IMG/VR virus record: IMGVR_UViG_3300028115_001816 | Span: 1 to 64,000 of that record | Strand: one strand, 5' to 3' | Source: a virus | Length of the DNA stretch: 64,000 nt | Part shown: positions 37,007 through 58,157 of the stretch, one piece after another | Layout of the letters: every line of letters begins with the position of its first letter | Numbering within the stretch: position 1 is the first letter of the stretch | Translations under genes and position numbers: made by a program | Notes under the pieces: generated by a model | The model's database searches: none | Told to the model about the DNA's origin: nothing | The model's input: only the letters and a program-made list of their open reading frames with translations

Positions 37007-37035
37007 TTGACAGGCGCTACGGCGCCTGTTATAAT
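37007..37035 (+). promoter_or_regulatory. Consensus sigma70 promoter TTGACA-N17-TATAAT, extended -10, leaderless
   Basis: TTGACA 37007-37012, TG 37027-37028, TATAAT 37030-37035, ATG at 37042. Confidence 0.85.
37010..37029. repeat. Perfect inverted repeat ACAGGCGC-TACG-GCGCCTGT (cUACGg hairpin)
   Basis: 8-bp GC-rich stem with UNCG loop in an AT-rich intergenic region; no clear U tract. Confidence 0.85.
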
Positions 37036-38970: not shown

Positions 38971-39235
38971 AGCACAACATGTATTCGAGTCTGCACCACC
39001 TCCAGAAATACGTTTGTATTATAATCAAGAAGGTGTTATACTTGATAAAAAATATGTAAAAAAGGATTTATCCGAAAACAAAACTTACATTGTAATTACA
39101 CAAGAACAGTATGATGCAATCAATTTTGAAAGACATCGTGTAATAGATAAAGAATTAGTTTGGATAACGCCTAAAAAAACAAACTGGTTTTTAAAACAGG
39201 AAGAATTAGCAAGGAATCCTTATGTCAAAGATTGA
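38951..39235 (+). CDS. Hypothetical protein
   Basis: Overlaps both neighbours in the coupled operon. Confidence 0.6.
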   Translation: MSSSFFEAQHVFESAPPPEIRLYYNQEGVILDKKYVKKDLSENKTYIVITQEQYDAINFERHRVIDKELVWITPKKTNWFLKQEELARNPYVKD

Positions 39236-40133
39236 TGTAGCAGATTTAGATTGTATATATCTAAGTTATGATGAACCTAAAAAAGAAGAGTTCTGGGCTA
39301 AGATACAAAACATGGTACCCTGGGCAAAACGTGTTGACGGCGTTAAAGGATCTGATGCTGCACACAAAGCAGCAGCCAGTGCTAGTGATACTGAGCGTTT
39401 TGTACTAATAGATGGCGACAATATGCCTTATCCAGAATTTTTCGATATAACTTTAGATATAAAACCTGAACATGAAGACTGTGTATTTCGTTGGAAAGCA
39501 GTGAACGCAGTCAACGGACTTATGTATGGTAACGGAGGTATAAGTTGTTGGACACGTGAGTTTGTAAACAACATGCAGACACATGAAAATAGCAATGGAG
39601 CAGATGAAAACGAAGTAGAGTTTTGTTATGATCCAAAATATTTGGCTATGAATAATGTTTATAGCACCACGCATCCTAATGGTGATGAGTTCCACGCATG
39701 GAGAGCAGGATTTAGAGAAGGTGTAAAGATGTGTTTGAAGAAAGGCACAAAGCCTAGTCTGTTAGAATTTAACGAAATGGTTCATCGCAGTAACTTTGAT
39801 AGACTAAGCATATGGCACAACATAGGTGCTGACGCAGAATATGGTGATAGTTGTATAGCAGGTGCTAGATATGGTACTTACAGGACAATGCTTACTGAAT
39901 GGGATTACACAGAAGTACAAGACTTTTACCATTTAGGCGAAATATACAGTGAATGGAAGACTGTTGATCAAACAAACATAAACAAGTTATTACAAACACG
40001 TTTAGGATTACACATAAGTGAGTTTACAAGTGAACAGAGTAAATTTTTTAAAAAACACTACTACAATACCTATACAAAATCAGATCCTATGACATTAGAA
40101 ATAGATATGCTAAGAAAGTCTGAAGGATGGTAA
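39222..40133 (+). CDS. Glycosyltransferase-like protein
   Basis: LSYDEP, RVDGVKGSDAAHKAAA, FVLIDGDN (DxD), NGLMYGNGG, AWRAGFREGVKM. Confidence 0.6.
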   Translation: MSKIDVADLDCIYLSYDEPKKEEFWAKIQNMVPWAKRVDGVKGSDAAHKAAASASDTERFVLIDGDNMPYPEFFDITLDIKPEHEDCVFRWKAVNAVNGLMYGNGGISCWTREFVNNMQTHENSNGADENEVEFCYDPKYLAMNNVYSTTHPNGDEFHAWRAGFREGVKMCLKKGTKPSLLEFNEMVHRSNFDRLSIWHNIGADAEYGDSCIAGARYGTYRTMLTEWDYTEVQDFYHLGEIYSEWKTVDQTNINKLLQTRLGLHISEFTSEQSKFFKKHYYNTYTKSDPMTLEIDMLRKSEGW

Positions 40134-41101
40134 CAATAGATATTACGCCTTACTGTGGAGCATCTAGGAATTGGAATACTGAAATATTAGCCTGTAAGAT
40201 TGCTCAAAACTCTAATGAAAAAATTATATTAGACCTCAAACATGAGGGTTGGGATATAGTTGAAAATGGTATAGAACAAAAGGTAAAGATTATTTGTGAT
40301 GAATTAAAAATACCTTACACACAAATAGAATTTAGAAGTAGTGATAGACTATGCAAAGCAAAAACATTCAAACATAAAAATACTATCGAACTTTTAAACT
40401 TTTTTGCAAGACTTTTTCAACAAGATATTCAAATAGTTTTGCCTAATAAGTTTCAATATGGATTATTCTGTGGTCGTGCAAGCAATGAAAGGTTATATGC
40501 CTTTTATCATCACAAAAATTGGAAGTATTCGAATAAAGGCAAAGCAAGTATGCATTTAGATGTTAATGATGTGCCGGAAGTTACTAGTGATTATGCAGAA
40601 TTTATCATTGAGTATAACAAAAAATGGAAAGAACTATGTAAAATACTACCATATAGCGATGTATCTCATTACATGAAACCTCCATTGCGTAGACAATCTG
40701 AAGACAAAAATCTATGGAATAACATTTATAAAGACATAGCAATAGAAATTGTTTGTGAAACAAATACAACTCCAGATACTTTTTTCATGACTGAAAAAAT
40801 TATACGTCCTATTGCATATGGAAAACTTTTTTTAGTAATAGGCAGTCCTAACTTTGAATTAAATTTAAAACATATTGGCTTTGACATTTTTGATGATATT
40901 ATTGACAAAAATTATGATAAAGAAAGTAGTTACATGAGAGTAGATAATGTTTTTCAAAGTTTAGAAAAGTTTTTAAGTAATCCAATAGATATAGAAGCAT
41001 TACTGCCACGACTAGAAGCAAACAAAAAAGTTTTAAATAAATTACCAGTGACAATGGCTGGAAACAAGATAGCAAAACTATTAGGACTTGATAATGAGTG
41101 A
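40127..41101 (+). CDS. GT10-like (fucosyltransferase-motif) glycosyltransferase candidate
   Basis: EIVCET..FMTEKIIRPI..FLVIG..GFDIFDDIIDKNYD resembles the GT10 E..YITEK donor motif. Confidence 0.5.
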   Translation: MVTIDITPYCGASRNWNTEILACKIAQNSNEKIILDLKHEGWDIVENGIEQKVKIICDELKIPYTQIEFRSSDRLCKAKTFKHKNTIELLNFFARLFQQDIQIVLPNKFQYGLFCGRASNERLYAFYHHKNWKYSNKGKASMHLDVNDVPEVTSDYAEFIIEYNKKWKELCKILPYSDVSHYMKPPLRRQSEDKNLWNNIYKDIAIEIVCETNTTPDTFFMTEKIIRPIAYGKLFLVIGSPNFELNLKHIGFDIFDDIIDKNYDKESSYMRVDNVFQSLEKFLSNPIDIEALLPRLEANKKVLNKLPVTMAGNKIAKLLGLDNE

Positions 41102-42452
41102 TTACTATCAAGATGCACTTGTTGCAAAAGATAAATTAGCAAATATAAGTGATAGTTTCTGTTTGGCTAAATGGAAACAAGTAAGTCTGCATCTTACTAC
41201 TGGACATACTAATAGTTGTTATCATCCTCCTTTACATAAAATTCCAATTGCACCACTCTGGGATAATCCTAGTGCATTACATAATACAGAACACAAAAAA
41301 CAAAGTCGCCGTGAAATGATGCAAGGCGTAAAATGTACAGATTGTAATTATTGTTGGAATATAGAAGCACAAGGTAACATAAGTGATAGGCATTATCGTA
41401 GTGGTGAGCCTTGGGCAATGGATAGTTTTGATGAAATAGTTGCTAATCCAGATGCAGATATAAATCCTAGTTATGTAGAAGTTAATTTTAATAATGTTTG
41501 TAATCTTGCATGTAGTTATTGTTCACCACAATTTAGTAGTACATGGACAAAAGAAACTAATTCACTAGGTGCATGGCCCACTACTACACCTCATAATGCT
41601 CCAGAACACTTTACAGGTGAACGCAGAGCAATACCTAACAGAGAAGAAAATCCATACAGAGAAGCATTTTGGCGTTGGTGGCCTGACCTATATAAAGATT
41701 TAAAACATTTTCGTATGACAGGAGGCGAACCTACTATGGATCCAAACACTTACCGTGTGTTTGACTATGTGCTTGAGAATCCCAAAACAGATCTTCATCT
41801 AAATACTACAAGTAATTTTAGCGTTGAAGAAAAGATATGGCAAAAGTACAAGTCGTATGTTCAGCGACTATGTCAAGGTCAACAAATAGAGCATTTTATG
41901 CAATTTGTCAGTCTCGATACTTGGGGTTCTCAAGCAGAATACATTAGACATGGTTTAAACTTTGACCTTGCGATAAATAGATGTGAAGAGTTTGTTAGAG
42001 ATGTACCATATAGAAGCAGTCTAACATTCATCATCACAATGAACAACCTTAGTATTCTTTCATTAAAAAAACTTTTAGAGTATATAGTATACTTGCGTAA
42101 AACATATACAGATACGTATCAACGTATTTGGTTCGATACACCGCTTTTGTATACACCAGAATGGCAAAGTTTACAAATACTTCCTAAAGAATTTAGTATT
42201 TTAATGGATGATATAGTGAAGTATATGGAAGATAACTTAGATGAAATGCATGGATTTAAAGATTACGAAGTTCTTAAGATGAAGAGAGATAGAGATTGGA
42301 TGTTAGCAGGTACAGAAAATGTAGAACGTAAAAGAGGTGACTTTTTTAAGTTTTTTAGCGAACATGATCGTCGCAGAGGAACAAACTTTTTAGAAACATT
42401 TCCTGAGATGGCAACTTTTTGGCAACAGTGCGAGTATTGGAGTAGTAAATGA
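41088..42452 (+). CDS. N-terminal twitch-domain radical SAM protein
   Basis: FCLAKW..SCYH..CNYCW, then CNLACSYC, TGGEP. Confidence 0.88.
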   Translation: MIMSDYYQDALVAKDKLANISDSFCLAKWKQVSLHLTTGHTNSCYHPPLHKIPIAPLWDNPSALHNTEHKKQSRREMMQGVKCTDCNYCWNIEAQGNISDRHYRSGEPWAMDSFDEIVANPDADINPSYVEVNFNNVCNLACSYCSPQFSSTWTKETNSLGAWPTTTPHNAPEHFTGERRAIPNREENPYREAFWRWWPDLYKDLKHFRMTGGEPTMDPNTYRVFDYVLENPKTDLHLNTTSNFSVEEKIWQKYKSYVQRLCQGQQIEHFMQFVSLDTWGSQAEYIRHGLNFDLAINRCEEFVRDVPYRSSLTFIITMNNLSILSLKKLLEYIVYLRKTYTDTYQRIWFDTPLLYTPEWQSLQILPKEFSILMDDIVKYMEDNLDEMHGFKDYEVLKMKRDRDWMLAGTENVERKRGDFFKFFSEHDRRRGTNFLETFPEMATFWQQCEYWSSK

Positions 42453-42826
42453 ATAGAATAAAAAAACTTAATCCTTCTATAAATCCTATTACGTTTAAGG
42501 ACGGAAGAGGCATTATACAGACTTACCTGCCAGAAACAGATACAATAAAAGAATGGAACTATATTGTTACACTTAAAGGTGCTGTAAGAGGACATCATTA
42601 TCATAAAGAATTTGATGAATATATTATGTTTGTTGATGGTGAGGGTGTATACACTGAACTAACAGATGGCAAAGAGCTAGTAACTCCAGTAGCATCTGGT
42701 GATTGTGTATACTTACCCATGCATGTACCACATACATTCTATCCTACTGCTGACTGCAAAATGATTGCACTGATTACTAAAAGATGGGATAAATGCCAAG
42801 AACCTATAACAAAGGTACAGATATGA
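42449..42826 (+). CDS. Cupin, FdtA/WxcM-like sugar ketoisomerase
   Basis: DGRG, VRGHHYH, PMHVPH cupin motifs. Confidence 0.7.
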   Translation: MNRIKKLNPSINPITFKDGRGIIQTYLPETDTIKEWNYIVTLKGAVRGHHYHKEFDEYIMFVDGEGVYTELTDGKELVTPVASGDCVYLPMHVPHTFYPTADCKMIALITKRWDKCQEPITKVQI

Positions 42827-43719
42827 AAATAATGATTACAGGTGCATTAGGTTATTTAGGCACTCAACTTCTATCACAACTTGTTGATACTGATGTAGAA
42901 ATAATAGCCATTGACAATAGCACTGAAGCAATATCAAGTCGATTAGGAAGTTTTTTATACAACACTAAATTTTCTTTTTACAATGTAAATGTAACCGATA
43001 CACAGCGATTAAACGCATTGCCCAAAGTTGATTTAATTGTACATTTAGCCAGTGTGGTAGGATATATTAGTTGTAATATTACTCCTGGACTAGCACATGA
43101 CACAAACGTAATAGGTACAGAAAATATTGCTAATTTAAATACTCCTGTTATATATCTAAGCAGTGGAAGTATATACGGTGAAATCGGAGACGTGTGCAAT
43201 GAGGAAACACAAATTAATCCTAAAAGTCTATATGCCGAACATAAAGTTCTCGGCGAGAAGGCGGTAAGTCGCGTTTCCAATGTTATACTTAGACCTGCGA
43301 CATTGTTTGGCTGTAGTTATAAGATCAGAGACGACTTACTGGTACACACACTGATACAAGACGCAGTTAGAACTAACTATATAGATTTATATCAGCCTTA
43401 TGCTCGTAGAAGTTTTTATAGCGTCCGTAAAATGGCTAGTCTTTTAAAATATATATGTGAAAATTACAGTAAATTTGAAGGTGAAGTAGTGAACGTAGGA
43501 TGTGAAACCGGAAACCTTACTAAAAGACAGTTATGTGAAATTATTTCAAAATATACTAACACGGATATTAGAATAGTGCTTGGCCAGGATTTGGATAGTA
43601 GAGATTATAACATTGATTATGGAAAACTTAAATCTTTATGGTCAGAGTATGATGAAAATTTTGAATTACATATACCCAAATTGGTGAGATATTATGAAAA
43701 TATTAGTAACAGGAAGTAG
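42823..43719 (+). CDS. NAD-dependent epimerase/dehydratase (extended SDR)
   Basis: MKIMITGALGYLG, HLA, SSGSIYG, YAEHK; start at second Met overlapping upstream stop. Confidence 0.88.
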   Translation: MKIMITGALGYLGTQLLSQLVDTDVEIIAIDNSTEAISSRLGSFLYNTKFSFYNVNVTDTQRLNALPKVDLIVHLASVVGYISCNITPGLAHDTNVIGTENIANLNTPVIYLSSGSIYGEIGDVCNEETQINPKSLYAEHKVLGEKAVSRVSNVILRPATLFGCSYKIRDDLLVHTLIQDAVRTNYIDLYQPYARRSFYSVRKMASLLKYICENYSKFEGEVVNVGCETGNLTKRQLCEIISKYTNTDIRIVLGQDLDSRDYNIDYGKLKSLWSEYDENFELHIPKLVRYYENISNRK

Positions 43720-44506
43720 GGGTTTCTTCGGACAAAATTGTGTAAAGTATTTTACACAGCGTGGGCATAGTGTTACTGCTTGGACAGAAGATGTTAGAAT
43801 AAGTATGCCTGATGAAAACTATGACGTTTTGATGCCATTTGCTTGTAAGATAGGCGGTCGTAAAGGTATGGATAACAAGGCCTTGATGATAGCGGGAAAT
43901 GTTGAAATAGACAGATGCCAATTTTTGTGGGCAGAAAAGCACTGTGGCAGGATAGTATATCCAGGCAGTAGTAGTGCTTATCCACGTGAAGATTCAATAT
44001 TCTTAGAGCATAGGGTAGGAAGCGACATTCCGTCGGACGATATATATGGACTTTACAATTATTTTAGTGAACGAATGCTTGCCCATTGTAGCATTCCTTC
44101 TAGCATTGTTAGACCAGTTAATGTATACGGACCTGGACAAAGTTTACACTATCCAATGCCTAGTATTATTGAACGTACAAAACGTGGAGAATGCAGTGTA
44201 TGGGGTAGCGGAAAACAAGCACGAGATTGGATACACATTGATGATGTAATGCGTATATTTGAATACTGTGCTACTAGCAATGAAAATATTATAGTTAACG
44301 CCGGTTGTGGGACGGCAATAACTTTTATAGAACTTGCTGAAACTGTGTATCGTATTATACACGGGCATACTATACCAGTAATAACAGATCCTTCTCAACC
44401 CGAAGGCCCATTATATAGGCAAGCAGATATCACACGATTAGAAAGTTTTGGATTGCTTCCCCTTATTAGTTTACAAGAAGGTATTAAGGGAATGATTGAT
44501 GCTTGA
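43694..44506 (+). CDS. NAD-dependent epimerase/dehydratase, atypical YxxxN
   Basis: TGSRGFFG, SSSAYP, RPVNVYGPGQ, RDWIHIDD; catalytic motif reads YGLYN. Confidence 0.82.
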   Translation: MKILVTGSRGFFGQNCVKYFTQRGHSVTAWTEDVRISMPDENYDVLMPFACKIGGRKGMDNKALMIAGNVEIDRCQFLWAEKHCGRIVYPGSSSAYPREDSIFLEHRVGSDIPSDDIYGLYNYFSERMLAHCSIPSSIVRPVNVYGPGQSLHYPMPSIIERTKRGECSVWGSGKQARDWIHIDDVMRIFEYCATSNENIIVNAGCGTAITFIELAETVYRIIHGHTIPVITDPSQPEGPLYRQADITRLESFGLLPLISLQEGIKGMIDA

Positions 44507-45539
44507 AAAAGTTGGAATTCACTTTCCTAAAGATTGGCAATATGGACCTGAAGAAATACATATATTTGATAGCACTGCAAAACAAGTAGACAAACAGTTT
44601 CCTAATGATCGTAATCTAGTTATAAACACTACTTGGTTTGGTCCTCAATTTTCTAATGGCGAATGGAAAAAGGCTAACAGTTTTGATCAAGATTTTGATA
44701 ATCTATTCTTGCTTAGTGTAATAGATCCTTTACACTTGCAAAATGAAGACTTAGATTTGCTAATAAAGAAATATAACATAAAAAATGTTTATAGGATAGG
44801 AATGTTTGAAGGCAGTGAGCACGAATGGAACTTTCATGCGTTAATCGGCAAGGATCTGATGCCCAATTATACTGAAGAACAAGTGCTAATGCAAGATCCT
44901 ACATATATCTATATGCTTTATCAACGTAAACCAAGATATCATAGAATAGAAATAACGGAGATACTTAGACAACGTAATTTATTACAAGATGGAATAGTTA
45001 CATTAGGAGGACCAGATTCTGAAACAAAGTGGGAAGGTCATCATAAAGATTGGGAAGTTTTAAAAATCGAAGATTATCCAGAGAATTATTTAGGTACAGG
45101 AGGTCCAAAAGATGCATTTGGCGGAGTGCCTGATGATTTAGTAACAGTTGGCAGACTAGATTTATGGCAATCCCATTTTTTAAATATATCTAGCGAAACA
45201 GTGTTTGATGAATGGGAACCGTTATTAGTCACAGAAAAGATGTGGAAACCTATTATTGGGCTAAGACCTTTCATAGTGCATGGAAACCCTAAAACATATT
45301 CTTGGATGAGAAAAAATGGTTTCAAAACATTTAATAATTACTGGAAACATATTGATGTGGAAAATCTTGGTGCTCATGATACTGTTTATAGAGTTATAGA
45401 ATTTCTAAAAACACAAGATCTATCAAAAATGTACATTGACATGTTAGCAGACTTACGCTACAATAAAGAACGATTTTATGAGTTTAGTAGCGAGCAAGAA
45501 TATAAAATGGAGAACATTTTTGAAAATTATAAGCCCTAA
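44496..45539 (+). CDS. GT10-like glycosyltransferase candidate
   Basis: RKPRYHR, LNISSET..VTEKMWKPIIGLRPFIVHG..GFKTF. Confidence 0.5.
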   Translation: MMLEKVGIHFPKDWQYGPEEIHIFDSTAKQVDKQFPNDRNLVINTTWFGPQFSNGEWKKANSFDQDFDNLFLLSVIDPLHLQNEDLDLLIKKYNIKNVYRIGMFEGSEHEWNFHALIGKDLMPNYTEEQVLMQDPTYIYMLYQRKPRYHRIEITEILRQRNLLQDGIVTLGGPDSETKWEGHHKDWEVLKIEDYPENYLGTGGPKDAFGGVPDDLVTVGRLDLWQSHFLNISSETVFDEWEPLLVTEKMWKPIIGLRPFIVHGNPKTYSWMRKNGFKTFNNYWKHIDVENLGAHDTVYRVIEFLKTQDLSKMYIDMLADLRYNKERFYEFSSEQEYKMENIFENYKP

Positions 45540-46620
45540 TATTTTTTTCCCTCGTATGCTTTTGGAAGAATATAAAGAATATTTTGAAAAAGCACATAGT
45601 AAACTAAGTCCTTGTGATAGTATCTTTGTTTGTATGTTCGATGATATAAAAAGTTATGCTTTTACCCAAAATAAGGTTATTATATTTTATATAGATACTT
45701 TTTTTGATCATAGACAAATTGAAGATTATGTTGAAGTTTTTAATTTACATAAAGATAAACAATTTTATGTTTTTTCAGATAAGTTCAATTTACAGTCTGA
45801 TATGTATGCACCAAATTGTAAACATTTTCAAATAGGATTAGGTGATCAAAGTGTTCTACAATTAGGCACACATGCTACCGCAGTTGAGGATAAGAATTTT
45901 GATAGTGACTGTATTGGTATTTCTTTAAATAGACAACCTAGAAATTTTAGGTTAATGCTTATCTCTTATTTACTAGGCATAAATTTTAATCAACATTGTA
46001 GGATTACTGCACCATTACTACAGACAAGAATTAAAGAAGAGAAAAATATTCTAAATATATGTAATTATGATTTTTATGACTACACAGATACTATACTAAA
46101 GGGTTGGGAAAAAGCCAAACAAAATGATGGAATAACAGATACAACTGATGCGTGGGAGCCTATTAATGTAAAGGAAAAAGTAAAGTCTGATGAGACAGTA
46201 AATCCTTTAGAAAATTATAATCTTAGACTAACACCAATGTTTAAAAACAGTTTTGTTGAGGTTGTGTGTGAAACGAACTACGATTACAATTTTTCCTGTA
46301 TCACTGAAAAAACAATGCAAAACCAATTAGGAAAAAATTTTCCACTATATATGTGCAATACTGGGTATGTAAAATACTTACGTGATAATGGTTTTGATTG
46401 TTTTGATGATATTATAGACCACTCTTATGATAAAGAGACAGATCCAATTTTGCGAATGGTAAAAATGATACAAGATAATAAAATGTTGTTTATTGATACA
46501 GAAAAAACCAAAAACCTGTGGATTAAAAATAGTAATAGGTTTGATTACAATGTAAAATGCTTAGTTAAAATATATACTGATATAAGTAATAAAATTAAGA
46601 ATGTATTAGATGAATTGTGA
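45478..46620 (+). CDS. GT10-like glycosyltransferase candidate (start uncertain)
   Basis: SLNRQPRNFR, EVVCET..ITEKT..FPL..GFDCFDDIIDHSYD. Confidence 0.5.
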   Translation: MSLVASKNIKWRTFLKIISPNIFFPRMLLEEYKEYFEKAHSKLSPCDSIFVCMFDDIKSYAFTQNKVIIFYIDTFFDHRQIEDYVEVFNLHKDKQFYVFSDKFNLQSDMYAPNCKHFQIGLGDQSVLQLGTHATAVEDKNFDSDCIGISLNRQPRNFRLMLISYLLGINFNQHCRITAPLLQTRIKEEKNILNICNYDFYDYTDTILKGWEKAKQNDGITDTTDAWEPINVKEKVKSDETVNPLENYNLRLTPMFKNSFVEVVCETNYDYNFSCITEKTMQNQLGKNFPLYMCNTGYVKYLRDNGFDCFDDIIDHSYDKETDPILRMVKMIQDNKMLFIDTEKTKNLWIKNSNRFDYNVKCLVKIYTDISNKIKNVLDEL

Positions 46621-48112
46621 TATCTTGTTAATAAATGTTCCAAGGATAAGTTTGGTATATCCTCCTGCAGGCACAAGTTTACTGAAAGGGGTTGTAGAAC
46701 AACAAGGATTTACCTGTACTGTAAAGGATGCAAACTTTGAATTATTAGATAGCATTAAAGATCCAGATGATTTTGAAACAATTACAAATTATTTTACTAT
46801 CCCTAATGCAGAAATTACTACAAATTGTCAAAATATTATAGACGAATGGTATACTGACCTTGTAAATTATATACTTAAACTTAATCCTAAACATGTTGGT
46901 ATAAGTGTTTTTACATTTGAATGTCAGGTTGCTACTCGTGAACTTTGTAAACTTTTAAGGCAAGTTTATAATGGTAAAATTATAATAGGAGGTGCTGGAT
47001 TAAGTACTACAGGTATTGCAACACAAGTAAATGACTTTGGAAATAACCTTTTAGAAAATAATCTAGTAGATTATTACGTTAGAGGTGAAGGAGAACTTGC
47101 ACTTGTTGATATATTAAAAGAAAATAAAGGTGCAGGCATAAACAATGACAATTATATTCAAATTGAAGACCTTAATAGTTTAGCATATCCAAATTATGAT
47201 GATGTTATCAAGTACAAATACCATTATGCAATAGAGAATATACAACTTCCAATAACAACTAGCAGAGGTTGTGTAAGACGTTGCAGTTTTTGTGATATAC
47301 ATGCATTTTGGAAAAAGTATACATATAGATCTGGCGAAAATATTGCAAAGGAAATGGTTAGTCATTATGAAAAATATGGTGTACGTGACTTTTTCTTTAC
47401 AGATAGTTTAATTAATGGCAATCTTAAAAGTTTTAGACAATTATGTGATTGCTTGGTGACGTATTATGAAGAAAACAATTTGCCAGACAGATTTTTTAGT
47501 TGGGGAGGACAATGGATTGTAAGAACAGAAAAACATTTGAGTCCAGATGACTATAAAAATGCTGCACGTAGTGGTATGAATGGACTTGCAATGGGTGTTG
47601 AAAGCCTAAGTGAGCAAGTTCGTAAGGATATGAATAAAGGATTTAAGAACGAAGACATAGATTATACACTTGAACAGTTTAGATTACATAGTATTAACTG
47701 TTATTTTCTAATGATTGTAGGATATCCAACAGAAACTGAAGAACATCACTTAGAAACAATGCAGAACTTTGTAAAATATCAAGGATATGCTATAGATGGT
47801 ACAATATTTGGAGTAAACTTGGGAGGAACACTTAGTATTGACGAAGGAAGTCCTCTACATCAAGATAGTATACACTTTGGACTAGAACCTACTACAGAAA
47901 ATGAAGAATTATTTGGATTAGATTGGACAAGCAAAGAAAATCCAAAACTTACACTACTGGAAAGAATAAATCGACGAATTGACCTACAGGAATTACTTAT
48001 GGATTTAGGATATACTGTATGGAACGGTGATCACCAATTAAAAAGACTTAAAGCAAGTTATGAGCGTATTAAACAAAATACCTATCACTTTAAAGATATA
48101 CTACACTCATAG
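46610..48112 (+). CDS. Cobalamin-binding (class B) radical SAM protein
   Basis: PPAG..LK, VGISVF, IIIGG, RGEGE B12 domain; SRGCVRRCSFC; GVES; IVGYPTET. Confidence 0.9.
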   Translation: MNCDILLINVPRISLVYPPAGTSLLKGVVEQQGFTCTVKDANFELLDSIKDPDDFETITNYFTIPNAEITTNCQNIIDEWYTDLVNYILKLNPKHVGISVFTFECQVATRELCKLLRQVYNGKIIIGGAGLSTTGIATQVNDFGNNLLENNLVDYYVRGEGELALVDILKENKGAGINNDNYIQIEDLNSLAYPNYDDVIKYKYHYAIENIQLPITTSRGCVRRCSFCDIHAFWKKYTYRSGENIAKEMVSHYEKYGVRDFFFTDSLINGNLKSFRQLCDCLVTYYEENNLPDRFFSWGGQWIVRTEKHLSPDDYKNAARSGMNGLAMGVESLSEQVRKDMNKGFKNEDIDYTLEQFRLHSINCYFLMIVGYPTETEEHHLETMQNFVKYQGYAIDGTIFGVNLGGTLSIDEGSPLHQDSIHFGLEPTTENEELFGLDWTSKENPKLTLLERINRRIDLQELLMDLGYTVWNGDHQLKRLKASYERIKQNTYHFKDILHS

Positions 48113-48569
48113 TGGACATGAAAATGGCTGGCCACTATGTAGAGTCCTATGGGATAACAAACAAGTAGCAAACTTTAAAGCAGATGGACAAGAGATTGAA
48201 TTTACTGTGATGCCTAAACCTAAAGGTACAAGCACACTAATTGTAGAACATTATGGAAAAAATGTATATGAAGAACACGATAAATTTATAGAAATAATAG
48301 GTATGAGAATAAACAATATTCCTTTAAAGAATATACTATGGGAATCTACACAGTATCCTATTACTGCACCATGGGACGAACCTTGGCAAGAAGAAGGAAA
48401 CTTATATCTAGGTCATAATGGCCATATAGTGTGGCACTTTAGTAATCCAGTTTTACTAGACATACAAAATAGATTAGGTGTTAAGAAGAAACCACAAGAA
48501 GGGCAGGAAAGCACTAAGAAAGTTTTACAAGAAATAAAAGAATATTTTAGAAATGAAAAAGATAGATAA
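48060..48569 (+). CDS. Hypothetical protein (paralog of 49188-49493)
   Basis: HYGKN..DKFIEI..YLGHNGHIVWHF. Confidence 0.6.
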   Translation: MSVLNKIPITLKIYYTHSGHENGWPLCRVLWDNKQVANFKADGQEIEFTVMPKPKGTSTLIVEHYGKNVYEEHDKFIEIIGMRINNIPLKNILWESTQYPITAPWDEPWQEEGNLYLGHNGHIVWHFSNPVLLDIQNRLGVKKKPQEGQESTKKVLQEIKEYFRNEKDR

Positions 48570-49191
48570 TTTTTTTACAGAAAACGATTGTAAGTGGTTT
48601 CAATGGTATCATAACGTTTTGCCAGAGTCTAGAGATAACGGACTACGTATACAAACTATGACACATTTTGCACAACCATTTTTTGCTAGAAAGTTAAAAC
48701 AAATACAAAGTTTACTTCCAGATAATGAAGAAGTTACTACATTGAATATAAATTTTGATTATGGTGCAGGCGGAATACATAGCGATGGATATCTCGAGCA
48801 TGATAAAAATGATAAAATTGCAAATAGTTATCTAATACCTATTCAAGTCCATCCTACAGACAAGTATTACACAGTAATTTTCGAACAAACTAGTATGGAA
48901 GCAATTACGTTCAATGGTGAACTTGGACTAGGAGATAAAGGTATAACAACTTATAGGCAAGTGTCTAGGGAAGAATTTGGATTAAGTAACGAACCTTTTG
49001 ATAAAGATGTTTATAATAAGTATCTTACTCATTTAAATTATGATGCACTAAAAGGTTTGACAGTTGCACACATTCATGCATGGACACTAGGCAGTGCTAT
49101 GACTTGGCCCAGACAAAACTTTCATGTTAGTGCAAACTTTATAAACAAGGACACAAGAGCAAGTGTATTAATTGTTACGAGATATAAATGA
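48553..49191 (+). CDS. Putative 2OG-Fe(II) oxygenase-like protein
   Basis: IHSD (HxD), SYLIPI, distal NFHVS and R; DSBH-like spacing. Confidence 0.45.
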   Translation: MKKIDNFFTENDCKWFQWYHNVLPESRDNGLRIQTMTHFAQPFFARKLKQIQSLLPDNEEVTTLNINFDYGAGGIHSDGYLEHDKNDKIANSYLIPIQVHPTDKYYTVIFEQTSMEAITFNGELGLGDKGITTYRQVSREEFGLSNEPFDKDVYNKYLTHLNYDALKGLTVAHIHAWTLGSAMTWPRQNFHVSANFINKDTRASVLIVTRYK

Positions 49192-49493
49192 TAGAATTCG
49201 AATTCGAAAACAACGGTAGTTTAGAATATGAAGTTACACTCACAAACAATGGTGCTAAGATAAGATTCTTTGGAAAAAATTATAGTACAAATACAGAAGA
49301 TCATGTTATAATAAAGAATATAATTTATAAAGATTTAATTTTACCAGAACTTTTTGGATACACAAAAATGACAACAGACAATAAAGATTATGCTAACTTA
49401 ACTAATGTAAATTATATTTCATTTAATGGTATATGGGAATTAAAATTTACAGAACAAGATATTAAAAATATACTAAAGAAGAAACTTACATGA
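49188..49493 (+). CDS. Hypothetical protein (paralog of 48060-48569)
   Basis: FFGKN..DHVIIKNI..YISFNGIWELKF. Confidence 0.55.
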   Translation: MIEFEFENNGSLEYEVTLTNNGAKIRFFGKNYSTNTEDHVIIKNIIYKDLILPELFGYTKMTTDNKDYANLTNVNYISFNGIWELKFTEQDIKNILKKKLT

Positions 49494-50890
49494 CTGAAGG
49501 TAATCCAGAAAATAATTTAGAACGTATTTTACAAAACACATTACCGCCACATGATTTCAAACGTGAGCATTTGGATACAAGAAGTGCAAGTTTTTGTGGT
49601 GCAAAATGGTATAATGCTACAGTATGGCTTGGTAGTGGCATGACAACTAGTTGTCATCATCCATTACCACATAAAATAGATGCAGAAGCAGTCAAAACAA
49701 ATCCTAAACTGTTACACAATACTCCTGAGAAAAAAGAACAACGCAGACAAATGCAGTGTGGCGAAAGACCTGCAGGATGTGAATACTGCTGGAAAATTGA
49801 GGACATGGGTCCTGACCATATAAGTGATAGAATTTATAAAAGTTGGATATATACAGATGAGGAACTTACTGATGCATTTACAACAGACTATAAAGAAGAT
49901 TTTGAACTTAGAAGTCTTGAAATCGCCTTTGATAGAACATGCAATTTTGCTTGCAGTTATTGTAATCCTGCGTTTTCAAGCACATGGGTAAAAGATATAA
50001 ACAATAAAGGACCATACCAAAATCTGCAAAGTGATGGTAGAGGACATTTCATACATCCACATGATAGTAACCAGTTGTATGGATACGGAGAGTATAATCC
50101 ATATGTAGAAGCATTCTTTAAATGGTGGGAAAGTGATTTACATAAAACACTAAGGCAATTAAGAGTAACAGGTGGCGAACCACTAATGAGTGCAGACTTA
50201 TGGAAACTTATAGAATGGTTTGAAAAGAATGGCGATAAAAGTCAAACAAGTTTAGCAATTAATAGTAATTTAGTAGCAAAACCAGAATTAATACAAAGAC
50301 TTGTTGATGTTAAATCTCACTTGCCAAGTTTAGGTGTTTACAGTAGTTGCGAAGCAGTAGATTCTAGTGCAGAATATATTCGTGATGGTATGGTATTTGA
50401 TCAGTGGTGGCAAAACATGCAAAAATTACATGAAGCAGATATTGACACACATTGTATGATGACAATAAATGCACTTTGTTTAGAAACGTTGCCTGAACTT
50501 GTGGATCGTATAATGCAAAAGCGAAAAGAGTATAATGGTAATAGATTTGCAATAATGAGTTTCAATATACTAAGATTTCCAAGTTTTCAAAGTCCTTTAG
50601 TGCTGAGCAATGAAATAAAAAAATATCATGTAGAGAAACTTACTGAACTTAGAAAAAAGTGGGCACCTAAGTATCTTAATAGGAGTGATTGTTTTCATGA
50701 GTTTGAACTAGGACAGTTGGATAGACTTATAGAATATTTACAAGTAGTAGATAAGCCACACAGTGAAGGTTTTGATATGCCTAGATTACACAATGACTTC
50801 AAACAATTTTACACACAATATGATATTAGACGCAACAAAAATTTTACAAAAACTTTTCCAGAATTAGAAGAATGGTATGAGTCGCTCTAA
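49490..50890 (+). CDS. N-terminal twitch-domain radical SAM protein
   Basis: FCGAKW..SCHH..CEYCW; CNFACSYC; TGGEP; closest to 41088-42452. Confidence 0.88.
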   Translation: MTEGNPENNLERILQNTLPPHDFKREHLDTRSASFCGAKWYNATVWLGSGMTTSCHHPLPHKIDAEAVKTNPKLLHNTPEKKEQRRQMQCGERPAGCEYCWKIEDMGPDHISDRIYKSWIYTDEELTDAFTTDYKEDFELRSLEIAFDRTCNFACSYCNPAFSSTWVKDINNKGPYQNLQSDGRGHFIHPHDSNQLYGYGEYNPYVEAFFKWWESDLHKTLRQLRVTGGEPLMSADLWKLIEWFEKNGDKSQTSLAINSNLVAKPELIQRLVDVKSHLPSLGVYSSCEAVDSSAEYIRDGMVFDQWWQNMQKLHEADIDTHCMMTINALCLETLPELVDRIMQKRKEYNGNRFAIMSFNILRFPSFQSPLVLSNEIKKYHVEKLTELRKKWAPKYLNRSDCFHEFELGQLDRLIEYLQVVDKPHSEGFDMPRLHNDFKQFYTQYDIRRNKNFTKTFPELEEWYESL

Positions 50891-52181
50891 AACAGAAAAA
50901 TATTACGAAACTTACGACTACAATAGTAGGAGGCCAGTCTTTGTAGAATTAGAATCCTTACGTGATGATCAACAAAAAAAATTAATTGAAAGTAAGTATT
51001 TTTGTATGATTCCTTGGACACATATACACGGATTTCCAACAGGAGAAGCATACCCTTGTTGTTTAGGTGAGATGAAACACCCTATTGGAAACATGAGAGA
51101 AAATACTCTAGAGGAAATATGGAATGGTGAGCAATATACACAAATGCGTACTAATATGCTTGCAGACAGGCCTTGTAAAGAGTGTACACGTTGTTACGAA
51201 CAAGAAGAACAAGGATTTTTTAGTATGCGTAATAGCAGTAATAAACATTTCGGACATCATATACATAAAGTAGATCAAGGAATTAATCCAAATTTTGAAT
51301 TAGTCTATTGGGATATACGTTTTAGTAATCAATGTAATTTAAAATGTCGTAGTTGTGGTCCTATGTTTAGTAGTTTATGGTATGATGATCATGTAAAAAT
51401 GCATGGACAACCTCCTAATCATAAACGTATAGAATGGGCCGGGCGTAACAAGAATGATATTTGGGAACAAATGATCCCACATATAGACCATATAGAGCAA
51501 ATATATTTTGCAGGTGGTGAACCACTTATAATGCAAGAGCATTACAATATACTTAAAGAATTAGTAAAAAGAGAAAAGTTTGATGTAAAGTTAATATATA
51601 ATACAAACTTTAATGAAACATTGTATAAAGATTTAGATGTACTAGATTATTGGGGAATGTTTGATAGCGTTAGTGTAGGTGCAAGTTTAGATGCTAGTGG
51701 CAATCGTGCAGAACTAATGCGTAAAGGTTGTGACTGGAATAAAATTACTGCTAACAGAGAACGTATGTTAAAAAAATGTCCAAAAGTAGATTTTTATATT
51801 AGTCCTACACTAAGTTTAATGAATGTAGATCATATACCAGACTTTCATAAGGATTGGGTAGAGCGTGGTTTGTTGAAACCACAAGATTTAAATATAAACA
51901 TTTTACAGAGTCCAGATTGGTATCGTGTAGATTGTTTACCAGATAATATTAAAAAGGATTTAACACATAAATTAAATGAACATATAAACTGGTTAAGTCC
52001 TAAAGATAATTTGCAAAGAGCAACAAACGGATTCAAAAGTCTTATAAGTTTTATGAATGCACAAGATAATACAACTCATTTAGAAAAGTTCAATCAAGTA
52101 ACAACTCAATTAGACAAAGTAAGGATAGAAAATTTTTATAAAGTCTTTCCAGAGTTAGAAAGTCTAAAACAGTATGCATAA
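50877..52181 (+). CDS. N-terminal twitch-domain radical SAM protein
   Basis: FCMIPW..PCC..CTRCY; CNLKCRSC; AGGEP. Confidence 0.88.
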   Translation: MSRSKTEKYYETYDYNSRRPVFVELESLRDDQQKKLIESKYFCMIPWTHIHGFPTGEAYPCCLGEMKHPIGNMRENTLEEIWNGEQYTQMRTNMLADRPCKECTRCYEQEEQGFFSMRNSSNKHFGHHIHKVDQGINPNFELVYWDIRFSNQCNLKCRSCGPMFSSLWYDDHVKMHGQPPNHKRIEWAGRNKNDIWEQMIPHIDHIEQIYFAGGEPLIMQEHYNILKELVKREKFDVKLIYNTNFNETLYKDLDVLDYWGMFDSVSVGASLDASGNRAELMRKGCDWNKITANRERMLKKCPKVDFYISPTLSLMNVDHIPDFHKDWVERGLLKPQDLNINILQSPDWYRVDCLPDNIKKDLTHKLNEHINWLSPKDNLQRATNGFKSLISFMNAQDNTTHLEKFNQVTTQLDKVRIENFYKVFPELESLKQYA

Positions 52182-53343
52182 ATGTATATTACCATGGATT
52201 AGTATAGAAGCAACACCTATGGGAACAACAAGACCCTGTTGTTTATATACAGACGAAATACCAAATATCAATCTTAAAAATAGTACACTAGACGATGCTT
52301 TTAATAGTAGAACTATGCGTGATTTAAGACGTAGTTTTAGAAGAGGTGAAAAGCCTGAAGGATGTAGGAATTGTTGGCGTGAAGAAGATGCAGGGAAAAA
52401 AAGCAAGCGGCAATATATGTTAGATAAGTTTAAACATTTAAATGTTGAATATAAAGACAACAAGGGTGAGAAACTTCTATTTTTAGACTTAAAATTAGGA
52501 AACATTTGTAACTTAAAATGTCGTATTTGTGGAAGCTGGAGTAGTAGTAAATGGGCACAAGAAGAATGGGATTACACAGGAAAACATAAAGATCATATAG
52601 CAAAAAAGTGGCTAAAGGACGGGCAGTGGGTAAGAAAATCGCCTAACTTTTGGAAAAACTTAGATGAATTATTACCACAAATAAAATACTTTGAATTTAC
52701 TGGTGGTGAGCCTTGGATGATAAAACAACATTTTGAATTATTACAACGTGCAGTTGAACAAGGTTTTGCAAAAGATATTGACATTCATTACAATACAAAC
52801 ACTACACAGTACCCAAAAGATCCAACTATATGGAAATATTTTAAACATGTACAGATTGCGTTTAGTGTAGACAACACAAAAGAACGTTTTGAGTATGAGC
52901 GTTATGGCGCAAAATGGAAAACATCAAATTCTAATATAAAAAAAGTTCATAGGTTGCGTGAACAAGGATATCCAATTACTACACAATTGTGTTGTACATG
53001 GAACATACAAAATATTTTTTATTTAGATGAAATATTAACTTGGGCATACACAATGGACTTTGATAATATACATTTTAATCTTATGCATGATCCTTGGGAA
53101 TTTAGTTTAAATTGTACCCCAAAAACTGCAAGAGCTCCTCTAATGCTTTATTTGCAAAAACAACAGATAAAACATAAGAAATATGCAACAGATATTCATG
53201 CTCTTAAACAAATTATTGTTGATAGTACTCACGAATCTAGTGATGATATAACAAAAAGATTAAGACGTACAGACTTATATCGTAATCAAAATTTTGCAAT
53301 AAGTCATAGTAAAATTGCAAAGGCTATAAACTATGAACTCTAA
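52174..53343 (+). CDS. N-terminal twitch-domain radical SAM protein
   Basis: CILPW..PCC..CRNCW; CNLKCRIC; TGGEP. Confidence 0.88.
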   Translation: MHKCILPWISIEATPMGTTRPCCLYTDEIPNINLKNSTLDDAFNSRTMRDLRRSFRRGEKPEGCRNCWREEDAGKKSKRQYMLDKFKHLNVEYKDNKGEKLLFLDLKLGNICNLKCRICGSWSSSKWAQEEWDYTGKHKDHIAKKWLKDGQWVRKSPNFWKNLDELLPQIKYFEFTGGEPWMIKQHFELLQRAVEQGFAKDIDIHYNTNTTQYPKDPTIWKYFKHVQIAFSVDNTKERFEYERYGAKWKTSNSNIKKVHRLREQGYPITTQLCCTWNIQNIFYLDEILTWAYTMDFDNIHFNLMHDPWEFSLNCTPKTARAPLMLYLQKQQIKHKKYATDIHALKQIIVDSTHESSDDITKRLRRTDLYRNQNFAISHSKIAKAINYEL

Positions 53344-54610
53344 ACCTGAAAATTTATGTATGGCTCCTTGGACTCATACATATCTTAGTCCACAAACAGA
53401 ACGCAGACTGTGTTGTGCTAGTCGTGAACCTGCACAAAATTTTAAACAGTATATCGATACTGCAGAAGGCACAAACGAATATAAACCACAGCCATTAGAA
53501 GAATATTGGAACAGTGAAAATATTAGGCGTATTCGTATACAGATGCTAAACAACGAAGTTCCTCCTGAATGTGTAGTATGTGATAAAAAATTATTAAACC
53601 AAGATGTATATAGAGATTATTTTAGTCATTTGTTTGCACACAAATGGCACGAAATAATTCCTAGCACAGATGAGACAGGCCATACTACTATGAAGCCTGT
53701 AAGTTGGGATTACCGTTTTAGCAACTTATGTAATTTTAAATGTAGAATGTGTGGTCCTATGTTGAGCAGTGCTTGGGAAACAGAAGCACGTAAGCAAGGC
53801 AAAATAGAACCTTGGATGGAAAAACCTGTAAAACGTAAAATAGAAGAATTCCAAAAAAACACAGTTGAACAAGAATTCTCAGATGCAGTTGAAGAACATA
53901 GAGTAGAAGAAATTTACTGGGTAGGTGGAGAACCACTTATGTACGAACAACACTGGCGTTATATGCAACGTATAATTGAATTAGGAGATGGCCCAGGTTT
54001 ATATGCACGTTACAATACTAATTTGCATAGGGTAAATTATAAAGGTATTAATCTTTATCAGGATATATTGGATAATATTCGTGATTGGCAAATATGTGCA
54101 AGTTTAGATGGAACAGGCAAAATTGGAGAGTACATTAGAACAGGTTTAGATTATAATGTATGGTTAGAAAATTTTAAACAAGGATTAGCACACAGTAGAA
54201 ACAGACGCATGATGCGTATAGATTTCACTTTAACATTACCGGGTTTATTTGATATAGTAAATATATGTAGATTAGCACGTGAACTAGATGTTGATATACT
54301 TGCTAAAGTAACTTTTGCATTTACACCAGATATTGCAATGAGTCCACTTTTCCTACCTAAAGATATATTACATTCATATATAAATGAATTGTTATTGACA
54401 AGTGAAGTGGATAATATTACAATTAGAAATATGCTTGTAAGTTTATTAGAGCGACCTACATTTGAAGAAGAATTTCCTGATGAATATGCAAAAGCAAGAA
54501 TCAAAGGCAAATGGCGTATGCAAGCAATGGATAATTTACGTGGTCGTATGAAGTTTGAAGATACACTTAAGACGCAACAAGCAAAAGACTTTTGGAATGG
54601 AATTTGTTAG
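53333..54610 (+). CDS. N-terminal twitch-domain radical SAM protein
   Basis: LCMAPW..LCC..CVVC; CNFKCRMC; VGGEP. Confidence 0.88.
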   Translation: MNSKPENLCMAPWTHTYLSPQTERRLCCASREPAQNFKQYIDTAEGTNEYKPQPLEEYWNSENIRRIRIQMLNNEVPPECVVCDKKLLNQDVYRDYFSHLFAHKWHEIIPSTDETGHTTMKPVSWDYRFSNLCNFKCRMCGPMLSSAWETEARKQGKIEPWMEKPVKRKIEEFQKNTVEQEFSDAVEEHRVEEIYWVGGEPLMYEQHWRYMQRIIELGDGPGLYARYNTNLHRVNYKGINLYQDILDNIRDWQICASLDGTGKIGEYIRTGLDYNVWLENFKQGLAHSRNRRMMRIDFTLTLPGLFDIVNICRLARELDVDILAKVTFAFTPDIAMSPLFLPKDILHSYINELLLTSEVDNITIRNMLVSLLERPTFEEEFPDEYAKARIKGKWRMQAMDNLRGRMKFEDTLKTQQAKDFWNGIC

Positions 54611-56226: not shown

Positions 56227-56331
56227 ATGATAAATTGGGTCAAAAGTATTATTAATAAAATTAAACTTGAAATACGCTATAGAAAGCGTTTGAAAGAATT
56301 AAGAAAAAGGGATCCATTTATATACAAATGA
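56227..56331 (+). CDS. Small basic protein, 34 aa
   Basis: Not in ORF track. MINWVKSIINKIKLEIRYRKRLKELRKRDPFIYK; AGGA SD; ATGA overlap with carbamoyltransferase. Confidence 0.65.
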   Translation: MINWVKSIINKIKLEIRYRKRLKELRKRDPFIYK

Positions 56332-57842
56332 TATTAGGACTAAGTGCAGGCTTTCATGATGCTGGAGCCACGTTAATTGATAAAAGTGGAAATATAAGGT
56401 TTGCAGGACATGCAGAACGTTATAGCGGTGTAAAGAATGATGCAAATTTAAACCAACAGCTTGTTGATGATGCACTAAGTTATGGTAAGCCTACAAGTAT
56501 TGCTTGGTACGAAAATACATGGCTAAAAAGAACACGTCAACTTTACAGTGGTGAATGGCGAAAAGCAATTGACTTTAATACAAGTCCTAAAAAACTAGTA
56601 ATGCCATATTTTAAGCAAACAGGACTTCTTCCAAAAACACAAAAGTTATCTATAAAAAGTTATTCACATCACAAATGTCATGCTGCCGCAGGTTTTCAGA
56701 CAAGTCCATTTAAAGAAGCAATAGCCATAGTAGTAGATGCTATTGGTGAATGGGATACAATTAGTGTTTGGAAATGTAGTTACAAACCTGTATACTTAGG
56801 AAGACCAATTGCACAGTATAAAAAAATATGGCATCAAGTATATCCACACAGTATAGGACTTTATTATAGTGCAATTACAAAGTACATAGGACTTAAACCT
56901 ATGGAAGATGAATATATTACAATGGGTATGGCAGCATATGGAAAGGCATATTTAAAAGCATATGAAGATAATTTAAAACTTGTACATGATGAAAAAGAAA
57001 TACTGTTCACACAAAATATGCACATAGGTTTAGAGGACGACTATTTTGTAGGTACTGGTTGCGATAAATTTGATATTGCTTCTGGTGCTCAGAAAGTAGT
57101 TGAGCAATTATTAAGAGGATTGTTTGAACGTTTTGCTACAAGGCAAACGAACGTCGTATTCATGGGCGGAGTAGCACTTAATTGTGTTGCAAATTCTATG
57201 CTAGAAAGTCATTGTAAAGACTTATGGATTATGCCTAATCCTGGAGATTGTGGAAGTAGTTTAGGTGCGGCAGCTTTGCAATGGGGTAAAAAGTTGCATT
57301 GGCGAGGACCATACTTAGGACACAACATACCAGGTGAGTATCCAGTAGATGCTATTATTGGTGGTTTGATTAGTAATAAAATTGTAGGAGTAGCAAGTGG
57401 TAGAGCAGAGTTTGGACCACGTGCATTAGGCACAAGAAGTTTACTAGCAGATCCACGTGGTGAAGACATAAAAGACAAAGTAAATAGTATAAAGAAAAGA
57501 CAAAAATTTAGACCATTTGCTCCTATGATTCTTGAAGAACATTTTAAAGATGAATTTGTAGTTTACAAAAAAGACAAAGAACCTTATATGCAAAGTGTTT
57601 ACAAATGTAAACATCCGGAGTTATATCCAGCAATAGTACACAAAGATGGAACAAGTAGAGTACAAACTGTAGGAAAAAATGATCATCCAGATGTACGAGC
57701 ATTGTTAGAAAAGTGGTATTTTATGACAGGTTGTCCTATGTTGTTAAACACAAGTTTAAATATAAAAGGTGAACCTATGGTAAACAATCGTGCTGATGCA
57801 GATAGATTTCAAAAAAAGTATAATGTAAAGGTATATAGTTAA
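56328..57842 (+). CDS. Carbamoyltransferase (CmcH/NodU/TobZ family)
   Basis: GFHDAGA, HHKCHAA, VDAIGE, GGVALNC, GRAEFGPRALG.RS, FRPFAP, HKDGTSRVQTV, LNTSLN. Confidence 0.93.
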   Translation: MILGLSAGFHDAGATLIDKSGNIRFAGHAERYSGVKNDANLNQQLVDDALSYGKPTSIAWYENTWLKRTRQLYSGEWRKAIDFNTSPKKLVMPYFKQTGLLPKTQKLSIKSYSHHKCHAAAGFQTSPFKEAIAIVVDAIGEWDTISVWKCSYKPVYLGRPIAQYKKIWHQVYPHSIGLYYSAITKYIGLKPMEDEYITMGMAAYGKAYLKAYEDNLKLVHDEKEILFTQNMHIGLEDDYFVGTGCDKFDIASGAQKVVEQLLRGLFERFATRQTNVVFMGGVALNCVANSMLESHCKDLWIMPNPGDCGSSLGAAALQWGKKLHWRGPYLGHNIPGEYPVDAIIGGLISNKIVGVASGRAEFGPRALGTRSLLADPRGEDIKDKVNSIKKRQKFRPFAPMILEEHFKDEFVVYKKDKEPYMQSVYKCKHPELYPAIVHKDGTSRVQTVGKNDHPDVRALLEKWYFMTGCPMLLNTSLNIKGEPMVNNRADADRFQKKYNVKVYS

Positions 57843-58157
57843 ATGGTAGATGAAAACGAATTAAGACAAAGAGTAATTGAATCACTACAAACAGTGTACG
57901 ATCCTGAAATGCCCAGTGTAAGTGTATATGATTTAGGACTTATATATAAAATAGAAATAAAAGATGACTGGGTTGGCATAGAACACACACTTACCAGTAT
58001 GGCTTGTCCTTTTGCTGATCAAATTTGTGCAGACATAGAAAATGCAGTAATGACCACACCTGGTGTTCGTGCTATTGATAGACAGTTGGTATTTGAACCT
58101 ACATTTACAATGGAAATGGTTCCTGAAGAAACTAAACTAATTATGGGATGGTACTAA
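57843..58157 (+). CDS. DUF59/SufT (MIP18-like) Fe-S cluster maturation protein
   Basis: VYDPEM..SVYDLGLIY..TLTSMACP. Confidence 0.88.
   Translation: MVDENELRQRVIESLQTVYDPEMPSVSVYDLGLIYKIEIKDDWVGIEHTLTSMACPFADQICADIENAVMTTPGVRAIDRQLVFEPTFTMEMVPEETKLIMGWY

Follow-up and report, generated by a model that had tools for sequence, protein, structure and literature searches.

The DNA analysed here, hereafter referred to as the window, comprises 64,000 nucleotides and represents the first 64 kb of the 77.9-kb IMG/VR virus record IMGVR_UViG_3300028115_001816 (CheckV completeness 17%). It encodes five radical S-adenosylmethionine (SAM) proteins, named A1, A2, B1, B2, and B3 (Table 1), which, as judged by their profile scores, are secure members of the NCBIfam family NF033640 and in which a twitch domain precedes the radical SAM core. 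The context gained for these proteins is a fixed cassette of five orthologues, located behind tail-fibre genes and accompanied by transferases and a carbamoyltransferase. Based on this gene content, the reading preferred here, with a probability of roughly 0.5, is that a glycan is built in the cytoplasm and tailored stepwise by radical chemistry, a fibre protein of the virion being the favoured acceptor.

The five open reading frames (ORFs) were confirmed at the positions originally predicted, all of them on the + strand and all representing full-length members of NF033640 ("twitch domain-containing radical SAM protein", N_Twi_rSAM). Scores between 297.1 and 399.4 bits (E-values from 2e-88 to 2e-119), which by profile statistics are far above chance, were obtained against a curated cut-off of 170 bits, the matches extending from model positions 1–5 to 391–398 out of 398 in each of the five proteins, also when repeated on the DNA. 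The Pfam SPASM domain (PF13186) was detected N-terminally above its cut-off of 21.5 bits in B1, B2, and B3, with Radical_SAM downstream; for A1 and A2, a PF13186 match was absent at an E-value of 0.01, although their four cysteines align with those of the B-type proteins. PF04055 scored below its cut-off of 29.5 bits for A1 (23.2 bits) and B1 (27.3 bits) and above it for A2, B2, and B3.

The original prediction had placed an auxiliary cysteine cluster ahead of the CxxxCxxC motif, as in a permuted, N-terminal twitch domain, and this order was upheld by the NF033640 model, by the alignment, and by a profile match to BtrN. Across 62 aligned sequences (paralogs and orthologues), the invariant cysteines were C43, C62, C103, and C106 in the twitch domain and C153, C157, and C160 in the core (numbering of B1), also invariant being the GGE motif and a small number of Arg, Ser, Asn, and Thr residues. 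CxxxCxxC, which was found in all 113 family members encoded at the loci studied, follows the N-terminal cluster at a distance of approximately 50 residues. The auxiliary cysteines conserved family-wide number only four, as opposed to the seven or eight of a full SPASM domain, and these four invariant residues should bind one fully ligated auxiliary [4Fe-4S] cluster. Both cysteine patterns described for the paralogs, namely C-x-AKW..SC(Y/H)H..CxxCW for subtype A (A1 and A2) and C-xx-PW..CC..CxxC for subtype B (B1, B2, and B3), were recovered from the sequences, and the terminal DxxRxxxF motif attributed to all five proteins is present in four of them, whereas B3 has DxxK and lacks an F at the corresponding distance. 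The AlphaFold2 model of B1 was a confident single body with a predicted local distance difference test (pLDDT) value of 93.1 and a predicted template modelling score of 0.90. It features a beta-hairpin between the first two cysteines, CxxC-bearing helices, a partial barrel, and a helical domain at the C-terminus; according to Pfam and the model, the twitch domain occupies residues ~40–110 and the core residues ~140–350. Each of the five proteins is composed of an N-terminal twitch domain, a CxxxCxxC radical SAM barrel, and a family-specific helical C-terminal domain.

This twitch-first architecture is already catalogued, and the five genes add members to an uncharacterised family. NF033640, which has the same order of twitch domain and CxxxCxxC and matches the proteins over their full length, is very large, mostly viral, and without a known reaction, no characterised members having been reported. 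The statement of the original prediction that an N-twitch family of this kind is defined largely from uncultured organisms was borne out, the nearest clusters being nearly all viral or uncultured. More than 7,500 homologues of B1 were found in metagenomes, and an NF033640-type profile search yielded 8,088 clusters at E ≤1e-30 (50% identity clusters; 1.84 billion representatives). Two or three modules were present in about one-third of the best 150 matches, and the representative library contains many such multi-module proteins of 800–1,400 amino acids. The literature library searched returned no paper on the family or on an N-terminal twitch/SPASM domain and no relevant paper for radical SAM proteins together with jumbo phages, glycosyltransferases, and tail fibres.

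The five paralogs proved to be divergent and intact, as predicted, with all cysteine motifs retained. Identities to A1 among the five proteins ranged between 20% and 33%, and a maximum-likelihood tree of 80 proteins contained five orthogroups of 12–13 phages each (13 for A1), every one with a support of 100 in the Shimodaira–Hasegawa-like approximate likelihood ratio test (SH-aLRT). Identity was 52–67% within the orthogroups compared to 17–32% between them, and the stems of the orthogroups were long (0.84–2.8 changes per site), with shallow crowns. Since A1–B3 are only 17–32% identical, they are not recent copies, and degenerate or recently duplicated paralogs were ruled out by intact motifs and low identity. 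The proposed division into two subtypes held for subtype A, with A1, A2, the copy of the Ralstonia phage RsoM2USA, and two accessory groups forming one clade (SH-aLRT 99), but not for subtype B, as B1, B2, and B3 represented three separate long-stemmed groups that were not recovered as one clade; five orthogroups plus accessory ones describe the family more adequately.

Eighteen alignment columns showed a conservation of ≥90% within each group and held at least three different residues between groups. On the B1 model, these columns map to the twitch hairpin (49, 51, and 56) and to positions on or beside the barrel strands (144–150, 208–212, 240, and 307–316), i.e., to elements that line the substrate site in radical SAM barrels, and it can therefore reasonably be inferred from the model that the five orthogroups have different pockets. 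In one related locus, B1 and B2 are naturally fused in frame (L007:9980-12535; 851 amino acids) with both CxxxCxxC motifs intact.

The window is a fragment of an uncultured giant myovirus from salt marsh and seawater. Metagenomes from both habitats hold near-identical DNA, the baseplate wedge is ~35% identical to the wedges of Rak2-, Atu_ph07-, and SCTP-2-like giant myoviruses, and hub, fibre, and SbcCD-like genes are also encoded; blastn searches against cultured phages gave no match. Scanning viral contigs with B1 yielded 24 loci, and wherever a locus extended far enough, A1-A2-B1-B2-B3 were represented by one orthologue each in the same order. The tandem arrangement of four copies noted previously applies to this window, most relatives having all five in tandem. 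A1 and A2 are separated here by ~7 kb of inserted DNA, which is absent or different at this junction in most relatives. Other relatives carry different cargo at the A1–A2 and B2–B3 junctions, and sugar genes were repeatedly inserted within the array; ten ORFs that interrupt the array in relatives had no Pfam match. Along the island, stop and start codons overlap, and a convincing + strand terminator was not found within the array. The region 36900–56800 contains a single perfect sigma-70 consensus promoter-like site (Table 1), with which the island starts, the total number of sigma-70-like sites there being not above chance. The cassette appears to be part of a single long operon starting behind the tail-fibre genes. 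The B1 scan of genome contigs returned only SPASM-segment matches in five bacterial metagenome-assembled genomes, in none of which a protein scored above the family cut-off. When a whole phylum was searched starting from one of them, the result was negative for all 285 genomes and carries little weight, as controls were undetected at the same threshold.

The order of fibre, glycosyltransferase family 8 (GT8), GT8, GT-A, and radical SAM genes is retained as far as the loci L039–L046 and the cultured Ralstonia giant phage RsoM2USA, in which fibre, small ORF, GT8-like, GT8-like, GT-A-like, and A-type radical SAM genes follow each other. A1 is 36% identical to RsoM2USA ORF349, and A2 is 47% identical to ORF202, which resides in a second island of this phage whose genes are annotated as hypothetical. 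In the Vibrio phage K566 (genome of ~255 kb), the family paralogs are interleaved with the GT8 genes 0304 and 0309, both above the Pfam cut-off, and the GT4-like gene 0307. Distant viral contigs kept the upstream order, followed by at least two (locus incomplete) up to at least seven tandem copies. The sugar context put forward in the original prediction was upheld and recurs independently in three phage lineages. In pelagimyophages, GT8 genes and radical SAM cassettes reportedly likewise occur among tail-fibre genes in host-recognition clusters (PMC7029224); that study identified neither the family to which the radical SAM proteins belong nor their paralog structure or any product.

Genes for the GT8-like, GT-A-like, carbamoyltransferase, and DUF59 proteins are conserved alongside the cassette in relatives. 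The two GT8-like families are homologous to each other (hhalign 98.8%). The GT-A-like protein encoded at 39222 is 60–76% identical across relatives and 40% identical to RsoM2USA ORF350, the neighbour of its A-type radical SAM gene, and the window contains a paralogue of it. PDB profile searches were negative for the families of 39222 and 37322 and for the TEK-motif family. In the alignment of the three TEK-motif proteins, E223, K224, G251, F252, and F255 are invariant; having no Pfam or PDB sequence match, these proteins may form an undescribed transferase-like family, their possible role as glycosyltransferases being read from the motif by eye only. Pfam matches were also absent for the window ORFs starting at 36085, 40127, 44496, 45478, 48060, 48553, 49188, and 55496. 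The nearest solved relatives of the carbamoyltransferase are 7xb6, NovN, GdmN, and TobZ, and its identity amounts to 51–73% in relatives and 45% in RsoM2USA. By way of its DUF59 gene, the phage may aid the maturation of its own iron–sulfur (Fe-S) enzymes. In two relatives (L001:17964-18674 and L002:15708-16433), the gene coupled to the micro-protein described below encodes an FNR-like FAD/NAD(P) reductase, a plausible electron source for the radical SAM enzymes there; the window is without such a reductase. The DegT-type aminotransferase among the nucleotide-sugar genes is nearest to QdtB and WbpE.

A basic micro-protein of 34 amino acids is encoded directly ahead of the carbamoyltransferase gene and occurs in 20 related loci, its C-terminal half being nearly invariant. 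Codon differences were synonymous in 875 and non-synonymous in 243 cases, and because the former far exceed the latter, the micro-protein is considered to be translated and constrained. It is always start-stop coupled to the next gene, which encodes the carbamoyltransferase, the FNR-like reductase, or a DUF6071 protein. RsoM2USA possesses an unannotated copy ending in DPFIYK at 125894–125989 on the − strand, beside the A2 orthologue and the carbamoyltransferase gene. The micro-protein could serve as a substrate or scaffold, or else represent a small subunit or leader peptide.

Among solved structures, the N-terminal part of the family profiles matched only the C-terminal twitch domain of BtrN, cysteine to cysteine with a one-residue shift at the second cysteine (E-values of 5.6e-4 for the whole-protein profile and 0.024 for the domain alone). 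BtrN, a 2-deoxy-scyllo-inosamine dehydrogenase (PDB 4M7S/4M7T), resembles the phage proteins in its homologous twitch domain, in similar cysteine spacing, in having one auxiliary cluster, and in a carbohydrate-related genomic context. However, its twitch domain is C-terminal as opposed to N-terminal, the phage proteins carry an additional C-terminal helical domain of ~80 residues, and the similarity of the cores is generic. Searches with Foldseek and VIA-align retrieved generic radical SAM neighbours only. Among the top matches of the core were BlsE and DesII (PDB 7VOB and 8HZV), radical SAM enzymes with sugar-nucleoside or nucleotide-sugar substrates, with Z-scores of 12.5 and 12.3 at 12–13% identity.

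According to the favoured glycan reading, each enzyme would cleave SAM to a 5'-deoxyadenosyl radical and abstract a different C–H hydrogen of a sugar, either carried by a nucleotide or belonging to an acceptor-bound glycan, with the twitch cluster taking or returning the electron. The five enzymes would perform distinct oxidations, epimerisations, deoxygenations, or C–C couplings, carbamoylation would finish the product, and the Ser/Thr-rich fibre proteins encoded just upstream would serve as the favoured acceptor. Since no island protein contains a membrane-like segment, the glycan is probably assembled in the cytoplasm. Glycan tailoring is best supported because glycosyltransferases recur in three lineages, sugar genes are inserted in the array, and the position behind the fibre genes is fixed. 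Glycosylation of virions has precedents, as mycobacteriophages and giant viruses glycosylate their own particles. An extended version, in which five to more than seven N-twitch enzymes of giant phages constitute a dedicated oxygen-independent pathway that, assisted by the Fe-S helper and, in relatives, by the reductase, makes a heavily edited, carbamoylated glycan or a peptide-derived glycoconjugate on the fibres, can only be put forward tentatively.

Several observations speak against glycan tailoring. The link to glycans is guilt by association with neighbouring genes, and the transferases are assigned on weak matches: glycogenin (GT8) was hit by the profile of the second GT8-like family at an E-value of 1.6e-4, and the Foldseek matches of the 39222 model to RmlT, ArnC, PBCV-1 A64R, and SunS reached E-values of 3e-4 to 3e-3 with TM-scores of 0.2–0.36. 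The epimerase, cupin, and B12 genes belong to the variable insert and are outside the conserved core, which weakens a sugar reading built on them. The structural neighbours of the radical SAM core are tied (Z-scores from 12.5 to 11) and include BlsE, DesII, peptide maturases, MoaA, and viperin, with BlsE, DesII, SkfB, SuiB, and anSME falling between 12.5 and 11.9; because BlsE/DesII and the maturases/MoaA score within one Z unit, sugar and peptide enzymes are inseparable by fold. The micro-protein, which is under strong purifying selection and located beside the A2 orthologue in RsoM2USA, could be the true substrate. Mismatch-free contigs from three salt-marsh metatranscriptome libraries cover 21–29 out of 30 bins of positions 39000–58500 and are consistent with expression of the island; DNA carry-over is a possible source of these contigs.

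A peptide or protein substrate is less probable but a serious rival. In that case, the radical SAM enzymes would modify the micro-protein or a fibre protein in a PqqA/PqqE- or MftA/MftC-like manner, and the transferases and the carbamoyltransferase would subsequently decorate the peptide-derived product, for which mycofactocin, made by radical SAM/SPASM chemistry and glycosylated afterwards, provides a precedent. Peptides are the substrates of most characterised SPASM/twitch enzymes, and SkfB, SuiB, CteB, and anSME, which were among the top fold matches, have the superfamily and the auxiliary-cluster module in common with the phage proteins (PqqE and MftC by analogy), as well as a parallel in the small peptide of the island. 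This peptide is the most conserved island element, and it accompanies A2 and the carbamoyltransferase in RsoM2USA too. The phage enzymes nevertheless differ from the peptide maturases by their four auxiliary cysteines, corresponding to one cluster instead of two, and by their permuted order, and neither a RiPP recognition element (RRE) nor a PqqD-like domain was matched in the five proteins by NCBIfam and Pfam. Moreover, searches allowing E-values up to 10 retrieved no micro-protein from K566 (complete genome) or from L043 and L046 (partial records), despite four to seven enzyme copies in each, the constant start-stop coupling of the micro-protein looks more like that of a small subunit or leader peptide than of a substrate, and glycosyltransferases are the more universal partners of the array.

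Remodelling of the host envelope, i.e., alteration of the host O-antigen or capsule by the infecting phage, with the exclusion of other phages as one possible purpose, is less probable still. The same role was proposed for the GT8 clusters of pelagimyophages (PMC7029224), and the WbpB/WbpE-like and dehydratase genes of the window suit pathways for surface-sugar precursors. However, the island contains no flippase, polymerase, ligase, polyprenyl-phosphate transferase, or membrane protein, although host machinery could serve instead, and the strict synteny with fibre genes over deep divergence would be left unexplained. The least probable of the explanations considered is the modification of nucleotides or DNA, in which the enzymes would act in a viperin- or MoaA-like manner or as in thymidine hypermodification, and the transferases and the kinase would build hypermodified DNA. 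Radical SAM enzymes reportedly occur in thymidine hypermodification pathways of phages, the island encodes a P-loop kinase and a nucleotidyltransferase-like protein, all of its proteins are soluble, and the cores show weak similarity to viperin and MoaA. Viperin itself was ruled out by scores of 18–27 bits against the cut-off of 180 bits of NF038283, the island is fixed next to tail-fibre and not replication genes, and Pfam revealed no gene for a hydroxymethylase or for base modification in it.

If the extended pathway applies, twitch radical SAM enzymes would gain new types of reaction and phages a new route for tuning host recognition or evading defences, and a product decorating the tail fibres would bear on host range and phage recognition. 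To our knowledge, radical SAM carbohydrate chemistry is rare, biotechnologically valuable, and not described as a phage function. Usable outcomes are the five orthologues with predicted pocket differences and the fusions hinting at enzymes that work together, and RsoM2USA and K566 represent cultured phages in which the genes could be knocked out and the product sought.

Table 1. Location and properties of the N-twitch radical SAM genes, their partner genes, and related islands in cultured phages. Positions refer to the window unless a locus is named.
Feature	Position	Strand	Properties
Tail-fibre-like, Ser/Thr-rich structural genes	33894..36984	+	PHROG tail-fibre matches, Peptidase_G2; S+T 20-26%
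Sigma-70 consensus promoter-like site	37007..37035	+	12/12 matches, extended -10; sole perfect site in 36900-56800
Two GT8-like glycosyltransferase homologues	37322-38155, 38152-38970	+	Conserved in relatives and RsoM2USA
GT-A-fold transferase-like protein	39222..40133	+	Best conserved partner besides the radical SAM genes; DGD motif; AlphaFold2 pLDDT 87.6
TEK-motif protein	40127..41101	+	C-terminal E-T..TEK..GFD.FDDIID, common to 44496-45539 and 45478-46620
A1, N-twitch radical SAM	41088..42452	+	454 aa (amino acids), TTG start; NF033640 314.8 bits, full length
Variable A1–A2 insert	42449..49493	+	Cupin, two NAD epimerase/dehydratases, two TEK-motif proteins, B12-binding radical SAM, three unknowns; Pfam, NCBIfam
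A2, N-twitch radical SAM	49490..50890	+	466 aa; NF033640 308.5 bits
B1, N-twitch radical SAM	50877..52181	+	434 aa; NF033640 399.4 bits; SPASM 52 bits, residues 43-106
B2, N-twitch radical SAM	52174..53343	+	389 aa; NF033640 323.9 bits; SPASM 30.9 bits, residues 4-68
B3, N-twitch radical SAM	53333..54610	+	425 aa; NF033640 297.1 bits; SPASM 22.3 bits
P-loop kinase-like protein	54611-55066	+	AAA_33 39 bits, APS_kinase 31 bits
HxGH nucleotidyltransferase-like protein	55063-55479	+	CTP_transf_like 19.3 bits, under cut-off 21
Basic micro-protein	56227..56331	+	34 aa, C-terminus RKRDPFIYK; stop overlaps carbamoyltransferase ATG (ATGA)
NodU/CmcH/TobZ-type carbamoyltransferase	56328..57842	+	Carbam_trans_N 117.6 bits, Carbam_trans_C 171.7 bits
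DUF59/FeS_assembly_P protein	57843..58157	+	PF01883 64.4 bits; conserved in several relatives
Paralogue of the 39222 GT-A-like protein	58268..59509	+	RsoM2USA homologues match both; co-aligned
Nucleotide-sugar genes	59482..62278	-	GFO/IDH/MocA oxidoreductase, DegT-type aminotransferase, NDP (nucleoside diphosphate)-sugar dehydratase/epimerase (Pfam)
RsoM2USA second island	L047, 121000-131000		A2-type radical SAM ORF202, DUF6071 ORF200/201/203, micro-protein, carbamoyltransferase ORF199
Vibrio phage K566 array	L038, 155829-174761		Four full-length N-twitch paralogs 0303, 0305, 0306, 0308

Outside the island, two more radical SAM genes were detected in the window (610–1503 and 1497–2528, both on the − strand), adjoining the SbcCD-like (gp46/47) genes. 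The second of them showed a weak C-terminal SPASM match, i.e., the canonical domain order. Together with the B12-binding radical SAM gene at 46610–48112, the radical SAM genes in the window total eight. A single ORF of 4,422 amino acids (17764–31032, + strand) is located between the baseplate wedge and the fibre genes, and a gene for the flavin-dependent thymidylate synthase ThyX (63265–63927, − strand) was found just past the sugar genes.

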